From: Eubacteriales bacterium
GTDB taxonomy: Bacteria > Bacillota > Clostridia > Oscillospirales > CAG-382
Assembly: GCA_045535415.1 (NCBI GenBank)
Contig: JAZSLO010000043.1
Coordinates: 1-47,656, forward strand
Reading direction: 5' to 3'
DNA length: 47,656 bases
A program made the position numbers and the translations under genes. The notes under the pieces were generated by a model, which was given only the letters and a program-made list of their open reading frames with translations, had not been told where the DNA came from and did not search any database. This document shows positions 1,699-39,758 of this stretch, one piece after another; position 1 is the first letter of the stretch, and every line of letters starts with the position of its first letter.

Positions 1699-2039
1699 TT
1701 ATGAGATTGTAGCATCTGCTGCAAGGTCTTCGGTAAGGTCGGTTATTGCGTCACCTTTAGATTGAAAAACAAGGGAGGTAAAGGGAATGCCGCCCGAGGA
1801 CATAGGCCAAAGACCTGGGCCGTGGTCAACATAATAGGTGTAAAAACCGCTGTCTTCAATCTGCTTTTCGGTAAGACCACGTGTTAGCTGACGAATCATT
1901 GAACTGACAAGCTCCATATGAGCAAGTTCTTCCGTACCGATGTCAGTAAGAAGGCCCGTTACATCGTTGTAGGGCATGCTGTATCTTTGAGAAAGATAGC
2001 GCATACTTGCCGCAAGTTCGCCGTCAGGACCGCCGAACT
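1699..2039 (-). pseudogene. cotJC: internal segment of split spore-coat gene cotJC (Mn-catalase family), roughly residues 29-136 of the family
   Basis: Translation FGGPDGELAASMRYLSQRYSMP..LLTDIGTEELAHMEL..GIPFTSLVFQSKGDAITDLTEDLAA matches the CotJC/Mn-catalase pattern. It lacks the N-terminus (found at 39747-39840). It ends prematurely (..AADATIS*) about 50 residues before the family C-terminus. Confidence 0.85.
2028..2039. repeat. attL core (GACCGCCGAACT), identical to 39747-39758
   Basis: Exact 12-nt direct repeat at both cotJC breakpoints, in the same codon phase (TTC GGC GGT on the minus strand). Confidence 0.8.
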
Positions 2040-2064
2040 TCATTAGGCTATTGAGTGCCAAAAA

Positions 2065-3519
2065 TTAATCTACCATAAGGCGATAGGAGATTTTTAAGCA
2101 GTTTGTTTCGGATGAGAATGAGCAGGTGCTTATCAGTCCGCTTGCTGCTTCGTTCTTTTGCTCAAGTGTTGCCTTTTCGTCATTGATAACTTCAAGCACT
2201 TTTGCAATTGCGCTTTTCAGCAATTTTAAATCGTCTTTGGTATTCCGTTTCTGATTTTGCTTTTTCTTTTGTTTTTCCAAAAGTTCAAGTTCACTATCAA
2301 TAGAATACTTTATTTTTTTATAATTGTCAAGGGTTTCCACTCCATTTAGGTATGCTTCTCTTAATCTATCAAGTTTCTTCTTCAGGTTTTGCTCTTGTTT
2401 CTCAAGGTTTACATCCTTTGAGGAGAGGGATATTATCTCCGAAAAGTATTCGACGGGGACAAAGGTTCCTGTGTCTGTTTCAAGGCGCTGGACAAGTGCT
2501 CTTTCAAGTTCATCCTGCGGTATTGCCTGAGAATGAGAGCATCTTCCTTTGAGATAATTTCCGCACTTATATTTTCCGCAATTCCAGATAAGTGTTGCAT
2601 TACATTCGCTACATCTTACTATTCCAGAAATCCAATGTTTTTTTTCTGATGCAGGTCTTGCGTGATACTTGAACTGCTCTTTTAACATTCTCATACGCCT
2701 TTGTGCAGCGTTCCAGGTTTCCTCGTCAATTATGGGCTTATGCTTTGCATCTGCCGTTATGATATTTTCATCATCAAAGTTGCGTTTTGACCTACCCGTC
2801 GGATTCCAACGCAGTTTTCCGATATATACAGGGTTTCTGATTATATACTCTATTGTCCTATGCTCAAAGGGGTTTCCTCTATGTGTTTTTATGCCAAGTG
2901 AGTTTACATATCTTGCAACGGGCAAATAGCCTTCACCGCCGACAAAGCGTGCGAAAATTGTTTTTACTATCTCTGCTTCCTCGGGTACCGGCACGAGTAC
3001 ATTATCCTTTACTGCATATCCGAAAGGTGCTGTTGTCTGAAGCTCTCCACGCAGTGCCTTTTCTGTCATACCCTTTTTTACCTCATCGGAAAGGTTTATT
3101 GAATAGTATTCCGCCATTGCTTCAAGCATTGCTTCAAGTATTACGGAAAACTTATCATCCTCTATTGACTCGGTTATGGATATAACACGCACACCGCATT
3201 CTTTTTTAAGCATTGACTTATATACAACGCTATCCTCACGGCTTCTTGCAAATCTATCAAATTTATGCACGAGTATTACATCAAATGGGTGGTCTTTACT
3301 CTTTGCCATTGATATCATTTGCATAAATGCAGGTCTTTTTTCAGCTTTTCTTCCTGATATGCCTTCATCGACAAATATGAATTCCTCGGGAATATACATA
3401 TTGTTGGTGTCGGCATATTTTTTTAATGCCTTTTTTTGTGCATCGGGGGAATATTCCGTCTGGTCATCTGTACTTACACGGATATAAGCGGCGGCTATAA
3501 GGGTTTTATTATGCTTCAT
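2065..3519 (-). CDS. large serine recombinase (prophage integrase)
   Basis: 484 aa. AAYIRVSTDDQ catalytic-serine motif, recombinase domain, zinc ribbon (CSECNATLIW..KYKCGNY..GRC) and a coiled-coil C-terminus. The stop codon lies 25 bp from the attL core. 12 nt downstream of the repressor gene on the same strand. Confidence 0.92.
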   Translation of the reverse strand: MKHNKTLIAAAYIRVSTDDQTEYSPDAQKKALKKYADTNNMYIPEEFIFVDEGISGRKAEKRPAFMQMISMAKSKDHPFDVILVHKFDRFARSREDSVVYKSMLKKECGVRVISITESIEDDKFSVILEAMLEAMAEYYSINLSDEVKKGMTEKALRGELQTTAPFGYAVKDNVLVPVPEEAEIVKTIFARFVGGEGYLPVARYVNSLGIKTHRGNPFEHRTIEYIIRNPVYIGKLRWNPTGRSKRNFDDENIITADAKHKPIIDEETWNAAQRRMRMLKEQFKYHARPASEKKHWISGIVRCSECNATLIWNCGKYKCGNYLKGRCSHSQAIPQDELERALVQRLETDTGTFVPVEYFSEIISLSSKDVNLEKQEQNLKKKLDRLREAYLNGVETLDNYKKIKYSIDSELELLEKQKKKQNQKRNTKDDLKLLKSAIAKVLEVINDEKATLEQKNEAASGLISTCSFSSETNCLKISYRLMVD

Positions 3520-3531
3520 TATATCACCGCC

Positions 3532-4455
3532 TTATATATTCTTGATAACTGTTTTTACAAGTCCTACAACTCTTATTCTGAGTACATCTCTGCCCTCAAA
3601 TCTCTGCATCGGGTACATAGGGTTTATGGAATGCAGTTCAATCCAGTTATCACCGTACACGACCTTTTTGACAAGGCCTTCTTCACCGTCAAGGAGAATT
3701 ACGGCTATCTGACCGCTATCAACGCTTGTTTGTCTATGTACCTGAATTATATCACCGTCTTCAATTTTTGGATGCATGCTATCGCCTGTTACCTTAATAC
3801 AGATTGAGTTTTCTGCATCAGCAGGGTTTGTTATATAGCAGGGGACATAATCAAGCACATCACTTACAGCGCAGGCTCCAAAGCCTGCGGAAACGGATTC
3901 AAAGAGAGGAATCATATATATGTTTTTATCGTTTAAGAATATTGCGTTTGCTTCGGGAGAGGGGAATGTAATACCTTTGCGGTCTGTATCTTGCTCTTTT
4001 TCTTCTGAAAAATAAGATACAGGGACACCAAAGAAATCGGCAATTTTTGCGAGTGCAGTGCTATGGGGAACTGCACCGTTCTTCCACCGTGTAACAGCAC
4101 CCGACGAGATACCGAGTTGTTTTGCAACGGGGTTTGGCTTTGTATTATTCTCAACACACAATCTTACAAATCTTTCCCAAAACATATCAAAACTATCATT
4201 AGATTGTATTTGATTGTCTGATGTGGAGAGGGTAGGTTTTGCACTTTTATCATCTGTTTGGTCGGTCAAATATTCAAGAGAGGTGTCTAAAATCTTGATG
4301 ATTATAGACAACCTATCGTTTGGTATATCTCCGCCATTTGATTTCAAAATATCATTGAAGTAACTTCTTCCCATACCGAATTTCTTACAAATAAAGGCTA
4401 TTGAAATCCCCTTTTCTTTTGCCAATTCCTTTATTTTTGAAATGTTTACCTTCAT
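3532..4455 (-). CDS. CI/LexA-like phage repressor: two XRE-type HTH domains plus an S24 autopeptidase domain
   Basis: Two HTH segments (KEKGISIAFICKKFGMGRSYF; VAKQLGISSGAVTRWKNG). C-terminal VTGDSMHP...LVKKV Ser/Lys peptidase signature. Divergent from a cro-like gene. Confidence 0.85.
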   Translation of the reverse strand: MKVNISKIKELAKEKGISIAFICKKFGMGRSYFNDILKSNGGDIPNDRLSIIIKILDTSLEYLTDQTDDKSAKPTLSTSDNQIQSNDSFDMFWERFVRLCVENNTKPNPVAKQLGISSGAVTRWKNGAVPHSTALAKIADFFGVPVSYFSEEKEQDTDRKGITFPSPEANAIFLNDKNIYMIPLFESVSAGFGACAVSDVLDYVPCYITNPADAENSICIKVTGDSMHPKIEDGDIIQVHRQTSVDSGQIAVILLDGEEGLVKKVVYGDNWIELHSINPMYPMQRFEGRDVLRIRVVGLVKTVIKNI

Positions 4456-4475
4456 AATTCACACCCTTTGTTAAT

Positions 4476-4573
4476 TTTGACTAAACCTACAACACATTTG
4501 TTGTGCAACCCTACAAAAGTAGGTGATTGTTTAGAAAAAAGTATTGACAAAACCTACGCAGGTAGGTTACAAT
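4476..4573. promoter_or_regulatory. lysis-lysogeny switch region with operator-like inverted repeats and a rightward promoter
   Basis: TTGACA (4544-4549), 18-nt spacer, TACAAT (4568-4573). Inverted repeat AACCTAC-GCAG-GTAGGTT (4551-4568) sits between -35 and -10. Related CCTAC-AAAA-GTAGG at 4510-4523. ACAACA-N4-TGTTGT at 4489-4504. Confidence 0.5.
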
Positions 4574-4653
4574 ACAATCACAGAACAAATCCGTAACACG
4601 ATTATATCATTGTTGGAAATTGTTTGTCAAGTATTTACGAAAGGAGAAAATAT

Positions 4654-39075: not shown

Positions 39076-39081
39076 AACGAA

Positions 39082-39122
39082 ACGGTCGCTTTTTATTGTT
39101 TAAATAGCGACCGTGATTTTTT
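39082..39122. terminator. bidirectional intrinsic terminator
   Basis: Stem ACGGTCGCT/AGCGACCGT, A-rich 5' flank and GATTTTTT 3' flank. Lies between convergent genes. Confidence 0.7.
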
Positions 39123-39378
39123 ATGAATGAGTTTCAAGACATGTTCGTATTTTCTGAATTTGTTTCTCTACATCTTCTCCATACCACTCAGGATGCTCAA
39201 GTCTTGATTTCAGACAGGATTGCATCCATTTAATATCTGACATCATAGGGAAGTCAATTATTGGCACTTTATATGTAGTGGTATGTTCTTTATTAGGAAT
39301 TTGCAAATAATCATTAATTTTAAATTCTTTATCATCAATTACAACGCACTGCAGTGTTGATGTTTCTGTATCAAGCAT
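39121..39378 (-). CDS. 85-aa hypothetical protein, second gene of the attR-proximal pair
   Basis: ORF with RBS AAAGGA. No recognisable motif. Confidence 0.45.
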   Translation of the reverse strand: MLDTETSTLQCVVIDDKEFKINDYLQIPNKEHTTTYKVPIIDFPMMSDIKWMQSCLKSRLEHPEWYGEDVEKQIQKIRTCLETHS

Positions 39379-39422
39379 TTTTCAATCCTTTCAAAAAAAG
39401 TTTTATGCGGTCTGTATATGAG

Positions 39423-39692
39423 TCATTTTATATCGTTGTTTTTGTAATTGTCGTCAATGATGCCCTTTAAATCATTTAAAAGTTCTTCACCATTATTTCT
39501 TAACTGTGACAAAAGCAAAATAAAGGTTAAAGTGCTGCACATATTTTTTCCATTCTCAATATCTGAATATGAGCGCACATCCATTTCAAGTAAATTTGCC
39601 ATTTTCTTCTGGGTTAAGTTGTTGTCGTTTCTCAACTTTATAATGTAGCCACGAAGGAATTTTTTTAACTCCGATTGTAACTTGTTTCGCAT
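39423..39692 (-). CDS. XRE-family HTH protein immediately inside attR (candidate excision regulator/RDF)
   Basis: LTQKKMANLLEMDVRSYSDIENGK HTH. RBS GAGGAAAG. Starts 54 nt after the attR core, co-oriented with cotJABC. Confidence 0.7.
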   Translation of the reverse strand: MRNKLQSELKKFLRGYIIKLRNDNNLTQKKMANLLEMDVRSYSDIENGKNMCSTLTFILLLSQLRNNGEELLNDLKGIIDDNYKNNDIK

Positions 39693-39746
39693 TGTCTTTC
39701 CTCGTTTCTCTGGGGTTGATTATGCAAAATAGTCTAATGGAGTACA

Positions 39747-39758
39747 GACCGCCGAACT
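39747..39758. repeat. attR core (GACCGCCGAACT)
   Basis: Identical to 2028-2039. Confidence 0.8.

Follow-up and report, generated by a model that had tools for sequence, protein, structure and literature searches.

The 47,656-nt contig JAZSLO010000043.1 of an uncultured gut Eubacteriales bacterium (assembly GCA_045535415.1; Clostridia, Oscillospirales, CAG-382), analysed at its full length and called the window here, carries the spore-coat gene cotJC in pieces. An earlier note, made from the sequence alone, had proposed that a 37.7-kb prophage splits this gene and that precise excision would rebuild its reading frame. We found cotJC to be interrupted twice, by the prophage (element 1) at codons 28-32 and by a second site-specific element (element 2) at codon 136. 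We put the probability at about 80% that these are two independent elements integrated in cotJC as in a safe harbour, and that full CotJC is obtained only after both have left.

The gene order cotJA-cotJB-cotJC on the minus strand was the same as in L001, a locus of a related host in the Logan assembly of SRR28204438. The cotJA gene (71 aa, 40110-40325) matched the Pfam-annotated CotJA gene of L001 in size and position, and cotJB (39847-40110) was recognized by Pfam CotJB (E 8e-23). The 5' fragment of cotJC (codons 1-31, from translation and tblastn) occupies 39747-39840; read from 39840 to 39747 on the minus strand it gives MWNYEKKLQYPINIKKADPVAAQIIMSQFGG and then passes into unrelated sequence, and translation confirmed it as the CotJC N-terminus named in the earlier note. 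The middle fragment (codons ~29-136, minus strand, 1715-2039) reads FGGPDGELAAS...TEDLAA from 2039 to 1715. In tblastn with P0001, an uninterrupted 200-aa CotJC orthologue used as the comparison reference, it matched residues 26-136 at 94.6% identity. The gene is therefore in three pieces, and 1-31 and 26-136 were the only ones found in the window by tblastn of CotJC. As arranged, cotJC is not expressible from this chromosome.

The two ends of the prophage share an identical 12-nt core, GACCGCCGAACT, at 2028-2039 (attL) and 39747-39758 (attR), as had been read from the sequence. The core occurs in exactly two copies in the window, with one extra match at one mismatch; the chance expectation was 0.04 matches, and 3 matches were reached in none of 100 shuffles. 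Deletion of 2040-39758 in silico (37,719 bp) gave a single in-frame open reading frame (ORF) across the junction. This rejoined ORF matched Pfam Mn_catalase over residues 1-137 (E 3.5e-35), was 96% identical to P0001, and was collinear with CotJC, the junction being ungapped in alignments with both P0001 and the Mn catalase structure PDB 6j42. The CotJC family assignment comes from the Pfam and PDB matches, with the second half of the domain outside the window. Excision of the prophage is precise and rebuilds the first cotJC junction.

The proposed restoration of the frame thus held across the prophage junction and failed for the whole gene. The prophage-free ORF is a truncated product of 140 aa that ends in ...TEDLAAD-ATIS and a stop codon, at a place where orthologues of 197-205 aa run on as ...LAAEQKARTTYDNILRL...; the codon-136 break remains, and about 64 codons are absent. 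Likewise, cotJC does resume in frame at 2039, as claimed, with an incomplete C-terminal half whose homology ends at 1715. Because the codon-136 element also breaks cotJC, two different excisions are needed for the whole gene.

Integrase 1, the 484-aa large serine recombinase of the prophage (2065-3519, minus strand; Pfam Resolvase, Recombinase and Zn_ribbon_recom), has its gene end 25 bp from the attL core, where the earlier note had placed it. Its target is the codons of the conserved Q-F-G-G-P motif (codons 28-32). Once joined, the prophage ends make an imperfect palindrome (16 of 24 positions complementary) whose centre is the GG of the second Gly codon; this bears out the imperfect inverted arms described around the core. 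The P arm lies at 39728-39746 (plus strand) and is identical in L192, a contig holding the site in its attP form. The predicted junctions are ..AGCCAGTTCGGCGGTCCTGA.. for attB1 and ..CTAATGAAGTTCGGCGGTCTGTACTCC.. for attP1. Scanning the window for Rfam families and tRNA genes gave no match, and attB is therefore not of the tRNA type.

Positions 1-1714 (plus strand) are the right-hand end of element 2, the remainder of which lies beyond the left contig end. In the alignment to the intact gene of L001, homology stopped after GCAGCAGA, at window position 1715. This end encodes recombinase 2 (4-1560, plus strand), a 518-aa TndX-like large serine recombinase with Pfam Resolvase, Recombinase, Zn_ribbon_recom and DUF4368 domains, which is convergent with cotJC and ends 154 bp from the cotJC junction. 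It aligned by tblastn with the annotated TndX of Tn5397 over residues 2-518 (31.5% identity, E 2e-65). Directly 3' of its stop codon stands a terminator-like hairpin, GAGGCAAGAGCTGAAAATGACTGTTTTTGCCTC (1559-1591, plus strand), that is kept in the related loci L032, L033 and L038. The P' arm of the element 2 site, ATGTTGTTCTTATGAGATTGTAGCA (1690-1714, plus strand), was found beside the core in the attP of L038 and in 30 integrated relatives. The 8-bp core, GCAGCAGA on the cotJC sense strand (1715-1722, minus strand), is the identity common to attB and to the N-side and C-side junctions.

The target of element 2 is the codons for L-A-A-E at codon 136. Its crossover dinucleotide would be GA at 1716 to 1715, given that the attP palindrome of the family is centred on GA, and the predicted attB2 junction is ..GCAGCAGAACAAAAAGC... 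The far end of the element is predicted to carry a P arm, ..AAGTTGTTCTT..TTGCAGCAGA, that directly adjoins codons 137-200 of cotJC. Both recombinases have the domain order of large serine recombinases, with the N-termini AAYIRVSTDDQ (integrase 1) and AIYCRLSEEDR (recombinase 2), and both fit the pattern of short att sites with inverted arms around a central dinucleotide (arms imperfect in the phage attP and perfect in the recombinase 2 family attP), without a long duplication of the target.

A second copy of the arm-like motif, GGTTGTTCTTACAACATCGTAGC, was observed at 1593-1615, about 75 bp inside the real P' arm, and is kept in L032, L033 and L038; it may be an extra, putative binding site for the recombinase. 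The left end of the window falls 3 bp before the recombinase 2 start, and the L032 contig begins at codon 6 of the homologue. The conserved promoter and palindrome upstream of recombinase 2 seem to be a place where assemblies break off, a hint that one genome or sample may contain several related elements. Exact-protein look-ups with both recombinases, CotJB and P0013 returned no contig that extends the window leftward.

In related bacteria the two sites were found in all four possible states of occupancy. Both are empty in L001, which has an intact cotJABC and attB1 = AGCCAGTTCGGTGGTCCTGA. In L002 (SRR31277394) the phage alone is present, with a 484-aa integrase and an S24 repressor at the same site, an identical attL and an intact cotJC 3' end; its phage DNA is 94-98% identical to the window prophage. 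In L031/P0121 (SRR27608069) only element 2 is present, the FGG site being intact and cotJC cut at codon 136. Both sites are occupied in the window. The search of relatives for an uninterrupted attB, which the earlier note had suggested, was thus successful in L001 and L031. In their host flanks L001 and L031 share only ~86% identity with the window, so the hosts of these two are related species and not strains.

The joined form of the phage was found in L192 (SRR28204437), a 1.5-kb contig reached through a homologue of ORF B, one of two small ORFs (A and B) at the right end of the prophage, in a Logan assembly. It runs from the 3' half of the integrase gene through the P' arm, the core AGTTCGGCGGTC and the P arm to ORF A and ORF B. 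One half shares 97.4% identity with window 2764 to 2028 and the other 96.0% with 39758 to 39080, and the contig matched the attP predicted by joining the window phage ends at 130 of 130 nt. A phage nearly identical to this prophage therefore occurs in a form whose ends meet precisely inside the 12-bp core. Exact searches of IMG/VR and the JGI metagenomes with the predicted attP gave no match; related phages in IMG/VR have perfect palindromic attPs with the same centre, such as AACAAATGGAATTAGG-TCCT-CCTTATTCCATTTGTT in L012. With attL and attR present here and attB and attP in public data, all four att forms of the prophage are documented. For element 2, L038 is an attP-form contig whose recombinase is 97% identical to recombinase 2 and in which the other arm is followed by a RepA_N/DUF6017 gene. 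A different arrangement was seen in L023 (4421-4580), where 80 bp of cotJC (residues 30-50, reversed) stand between an attP-like palindrome and a duplicated P' arm; either integrated and free forms were mixed in the assembly, or the phage carries a scrap of the host gene.

Integrase 1 had 103 relatives in IMG/VR and the JGI metagenomes (43-68% identity), and 64 of them adjoined, in both orientations, a cotJC fragment bounded at residue ~30; the remaining ones were mostly attP forms or contig ends. For recombinase 2, at least 578 relatives were present in GTDB genomes. Among the best 80 that were examined (68-98% identity), 78 adjoined a cotJC fragment cut at codon 136, also in both orientations, and the hosts include Lachnospiraceae, Oscillospiraceae, Anaerotignum, Blautia and Clostridium fessum. 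The cut at codon 136 was present in 22 of the 120 CotJC clusters nearest the query (~18%). Alignment of the junctions of ~70 loci gave the family attP as AAGTTGTTCTTATATGATTGCA-GCAGATGG-TGCAATCATATAAGAACAACTT, with perfect inverted arms, the 8-bp attB identity GCAGCAGA and a central GA. Horizontal transfer is indicated by L032, in which the recombinase is 98% identical to recombinase 2 while the cotJC of the host shares only 58% identity with P0001. Judged from these junctions, each recombinase's lineage is dedicated to its own cotJC motif across many Clostridia, and it is for this reason that safe-harbour integration is the best supported account.

The smallest elements of the recombinase 2 family, at 3.2 kb, consist of the recombinase, a conserved small ORF and a single cargo gene; the larger ones reach more than 10 kb, and their cargo is McrBC, type I restriction-modification together with TIR genes, or genes resembling those of conjugation. 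In-silico excision restored a CotJC of 200-209 aa at 6 of the 9 loci that hold both ends. Near residue 176 the rejoined ORFs of L084 and L092 ran into another break, and the product of L080 was shortened to 191 aa. Double interruption was also found in the metagenome loci L166, L016, L118, L128, L135 and L143.

Several side observations concern these relatives. On the 78-kb contig of L166 (394-486, 3001-4428, 4462-4794 and 6416-7426) the integrase-1-type element is only ~4 kb, and a recombinase 2 homologue (70% identical) follows the codon-136 break. Codon-136 cargo in L003 (10617-20423) is conjugation-like, with a ParM-like protein, a SpaA/TQ adhesin, DUF6017 and DUF3991/Toprim; in L004 (10675-20441) it is a defence island of helicases, type I restriction-modification and TIR/SEFIR genes; and in L033 (543-3288) it is McrBC. 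PHROGs and Pfam searches of the L033 element interior gave only McrBC, a phosphoesterase and EcsC/ArsC hints.

The cotJC piece that follows the integrase was seen to break again at residues ~64-69, in the EE(F/L)AH metal-binding motif, in L019 (4478-4597), L028 (4465-4587), L134 (2274-2393), L163, L186 and L190 (4426-4545). Just past this break L134 and L190 carry, in convergent orientation, a third type of serine recombinase that is 25-30% identical to both window recombinases, which suggests a third dedicated cotJC insertion site. C-terminal cotJC pieces in L084 (11620-11751 and 15430-15534), L092 (11801-11932), L093, L069, L065, L082 and L105 break near residues 176-179, between RFGEA and L, and in L084 the remainder of cotJC was found ~3.7 kb past the break. 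This looks like a fourth insertion site.

In the 150 nt upstream of recombinase 2 homologues, a conserved sigma-A promoter with an extended -10, TGACAAG-N17-TGGTATAAT, was found (74 loci among L033-L111). Around it lies a perfect palindrome, GACAAGCTGTTTCC...GGAAACAGCTTGTC, with arms that resemble the att arm AAGTTGTTCTTAT, and a recombinase of this type may regulate its own gene. Always just upstream of the homologues, even in the 3.2-kb L100, lies a small ORF ending in ..FTK(K/A)WIELINxLEK that had no Pfam match; it could be an accessory factor or a candidate recombination directionality factor (RDF).

Element 1 (2040-39746, plus strand) was recognized with PHROGs as a complete contractile-tail (myovirus-like) temperate prophage of 37.7 kb, and the earlier description of a fully equipped phage inside cotJC was borne out by the module set. 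Lysogeny, replication, packaging, head, tail and lysis modules are all present, which places it among the tailed temperate phages (Caudoviricetes). The integrase 1 gene shares an operon with a 307-aa CI/LexA-like repressor (HTH_3 and Peptidase_S24; 3532-4455, minus strand). The divergent lysogeny/lytic promoter region at 4544-4630 has, at 4630 to 4601 on the minus strand before the repressor-integrase operon, a perfect extended -10 sigma-A promoter (TTGACA-18-TGnTATAAT), and on the plus strand a promoter facing the Cro-like HTH gene (4624-4854) with an 11/12 consensus match. With an S24 repressor and the integrase behind a sigma-A promoter, integrase 1 would be made in the lysogen, constitutively from the repressor operon, and the prophage would be induced through the SOS response.

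Among the early genes, PHROGs matches were obtained for a recombination exonuclease, an ERCC4-type nuclease and a single-stranded DNA-binding protein. These are followed by the small and large terminase subunits (14462-16219, plus strand), the portal, minor head protein, scaffold and major capsid protein (17800-23275, plus strand), adaptors, and a contractile tail module (25302-35528, plus strand) with sheath, tube, XkdN-like chaperone, tape measure, baseplate and fibre. The lysin is an M23 peptidase. ORF A (HTH_3, 89 aa) and ORF B (85 aa, an orphan) lie at the right end (39121-39692, minus strand) near a terminator-like hairpin (39071-39115). No close phage was found among deposited sequences: the best integrase 1 match was 44% identical, and the structural region had no megablast match. 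Two further genes were noted, a 442-aa ORF at 16226-17554 in an unusual position between the large terminase and the portal, with only short matches to tail-fibre/collagen-like repeat PHROGs, and a PAPS-reductase-like gene (phrog_424) in the early region at 8457-9329.

The following course of events would account for the locus. An apparently intact, SOS-inducible contractile-tail temperate phage would have entered by integrase 1, which would recombine the quasi-palindromic attP with codons 28-32, the crossover falling at the GG of the second Gly codon within the 12-bp core. Element 2 would have been integrated by recombinase 2 at codon 136 with a GA crossover. Both would land in highly conserved DNA of a gene that is silent during growth and probably dispensable, that is, in a safe harbour. 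Since integrase 1 would be constitutive, excision of the phage would have to await an RDF produced on induction; element 2 may leave by the action of its recombinase alone, in the manner of TndX. Full-length CotJC would arise only in cells that have lost both elements.

Several results weigh against safe-harbour integration with later loss of both elements. The cotJC fragments had a ratio of nonsynonymous to synonymous substitution rates (dN/dS) of 0.03 relative to L001 and were in frame with no frameshift or stop codon. Misses at conserved columns were 0.38 per sequence in interrupted genes and 0.25 in intact ones (63 columns, p = 0.077), which is no significant excess. This absence of decay is not explained by a safe harbour alone and fits functional reconstitution equally well. 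Codons 137-200 were not found in the window by tblastn, nor was the far end of element 2 present in it, and the intact 3' remainder of cotJC elsewhere in this genome would be expected from relatives only. The joined forms in L192 and L038 come from other samples and not from this genome. No excisionase or RDF annotation was obtained among the ~45 phage ORFs with PHROGs, Pfam and NCBIfam, and excision by recombinase 2 without an RDF would be an extrapolation from TndX at 31.5% identity.

A developmental double switch, in which both elements are excised in the mother cell, cotJC is rebuilt and read from a sigma-K/sigma-E-type promoter, and the forespore keeps both elements, is a possible though distinctly less probable explanation. 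The architecture matches that of known sporulation-gene intervening elements (skin, SPbeta, vfbin, gin and yin), and the in-frame fragments under purifying selection, the lack of significant decay and the recurrence of double interruption in metagenomes agree with it. Minimal elements of 3-5 kb with little beyond the recombinase are kept in many lineages, like gin and skin. The cotJ genes are mother-cell expressed, as known from Bacillus subtilis, and a candidate mother-cell-type (sigma-K/sigma-E-like) promoter for cotJABC, ACctgttttcagactttcgCATACAATA, is retained just upstream of cotJA (40375-40402, minus strand, by consensus match). It conforms to AC-N17-CATAnnnTA; the pattern AC-N16-17-CATAnnnTA had three matches in the whole window, including this one, and the scan gave no other meaningful sigma-K/sigma-E match. 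Read-through from cotJ could reach ORF A and ORF B, which are co-oriented with cotJA, cotJB and the 5' cotJC fragment with no terminator predicted in between.

Against such a switch, no sigma-E/sigma-K consensus was found before integrase 1 or the small phage ORFs in a scan that cannot exclude divergent promoters or cotJ read-through, and no RDF was recognized in the phage. The relatives of recombinase 2 have the strong conserved sigma-A promoter and not one of sporulation type, and the fact that members of both families lie in either orientation to cotJC speaks against read-through as a conserved mechanism. In C. difficile the coat forms without CotJC-type catalases (PMC11222575), so selection for timely repair may be weak. 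Excision coupled to sporulation is plausible, without sequence support in the phage.

ORF A and ORF B were considered as an RDF driven by cotJ read-through, which is unlikely. They had only two homologues among 5.8 billion proteins and no relatives in IMG/VR. The circular phage has repressor, integrase, attP, ORF A and ORF B one after another in a single orientation, with no visible terminator after the integrase (2040-2064 with 39693-39746; L192 700-792), so that the two ORFs lie directly downstream of the integrase, an improbable place for an RDF. Integration splits this unit and thereby brings both ORFs to a position behind the cotJ promoter of the host, an integration-dependent change of expression.

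A more elaborate form of the same idea, which we regard as rather unlikely, is that cotJC of gut Clostridia is a developmental gene with several locks, where unrelated serine-recombinase lineages each have a block of conserved catalytic-motif codons of their own (residues ~30, ~66, 136 and ~176) and, in genomes like this one, two excisions by orthogonal recombinases take place in the mother cell before the catalase of the coat is produced. If this were true, cotJC would be a combinatorial version of the skin/SPbeta switch, widespread, and a source of natural orthogonal attB/attP sets.

Permanent inactivation, with a dispensable coat gene knocked out, elements that rarely or never leave and cotJC becoming a pseudogene, appears less likely again. 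It would agree with the need for two independent excisions, with the cotJC 3' fragment not being seen in the window, with the lack of an RDF among the annotated phage genes and with the non-essential nature of cotJC-type genes. It is opposed by a prophage that looks intact and has a near-identical counterpart in the excised attP form, by the relative of element 2 seen as attP in L038, by the empty and singly occupied sites of relatives, and by fragments that carry no frameshift or stop codon. A metagenomic chimera of host locus and phage or element DNA is highly improbable: the window is a contig of a metagenome-assembled or draft genome whose left end lies at a sequence conserved among many elements, but the junctions were assembled independently elsewhere (identical attL in L002; the element 2 junction shared by L031, L032 and L033), and both fall exactly at recombinase-specific cores with palindromic arms, as in dozens of independent loci.

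The likeness to skin, SPbeta and the gerE element drawn in the earlier note held for the architecture, the insertion lying inside a mother-cell sporulation gene with a recombinase at the element end beside the att site; it did not extend to an RDF or a sporulation promoter, neither of which was found in the phage. As with SPbeta in spsM of B. subtilis (SprA integrase, SprB RDF), a complete temperate phage sits inside a mother-cell-expressed spore-envelope gene, with a large serine integrase at the element end, predicted here to be expressed in the lysogen, a short attL/attR core and precise excision that rejoins the ORF. Unlike SPbeta, the target is cotJC, the host belongs to the Clostridia and the phage, known here from its genes, is a 37.7-kb contractile-tail one; SPbeta is a much larger, long-tailed phage of ~134 kb. 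No SprB-like RDF or sporulation promoter was found, and the second element in the same gene blocks reconstitution.

The elements also resemble skin in sigK (SpoIVCA/Skr in B. subtilis, CD1231/CD1234 in C. difficile), gin in gerE and yin in yabG, serine-recombinase elements that interrupt sporulation genes. That kind includes full prophages as well as minimal elements of a few kb, and the recombinase 2 relatives of 3.2-10 kb resemble gin and skin. The recombinases, however, are only distantly related, the conserved promoter of the recombinase 2 family is of sigma-A type whereas spoIVCA is sigma-E-dependent, and cotJC is not required for sporulation to proceed whereas sigK is. Recombinase 2 also resembles TndX (Tn5397) and TnpX (Tn4451), large serine recombinases that work as transposases, with the same length, domain order and C-terminal DUF4368. 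Crossover in Tn5397 is at a central GA dinucleotide (PMC4430133), as in the recombinase 2 family, and both target conserved protein-coding DNA, that of a Fic domain for TndX and cotJC for recombinase 2. In contrast to Tn5397, the cargo of the relatives is McrBC, RepA_N/DUF6017 or other genes and not a Tn916-like conjugation module with tet(M).

The earlier note had left it undecided whether an element in cotJC had been reported before, and it has. According to the citation in bioRxiv 10.1101/2021.11.22.469490, the in-silico survey of Abe et al. 2013 names cotJC as a target of phage or transposon integration, and the accessible text of Galperin et al. 2022 (bioRxiv 10.1101/2022.02.25.481979) gives cotJC as interrupted in Laceyella sacchari. 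As far as these partial sources go, the interrupting element was phage-like or transposon-like with a recombinase, as here, and the mentions are of one line, without att sites, recombinase lineages, double interruption or gut Clostridia. In the searchable literature, with Abe et al. 2013 represented by its citation, there was no description of the two dedicated lineages, their att sites, the tandem double interruption or its prevalence in gut Clostridia. The gene was therefore already known as a target, and the two-element arrangement is apparently unreported.

For annotation, the finding means that database ORFs of 140 aa labelled "manganese catalase" are in many cases halves of a cotJC gene that has been interrupted. 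For recombinase engineering, it offers many natural attP/attB pairs that have defined cores (GG and GA) and whose targets are conserved coding motifs. A documented case with all four att sites is added to the short list of phages inside sporulation genes, in a host group, the gut Clostridia, in which sporulation governs transmission. One small gene serves as a dedicated landing site for several independent lineages of serine recombinases, and its double interruption is recurrent.

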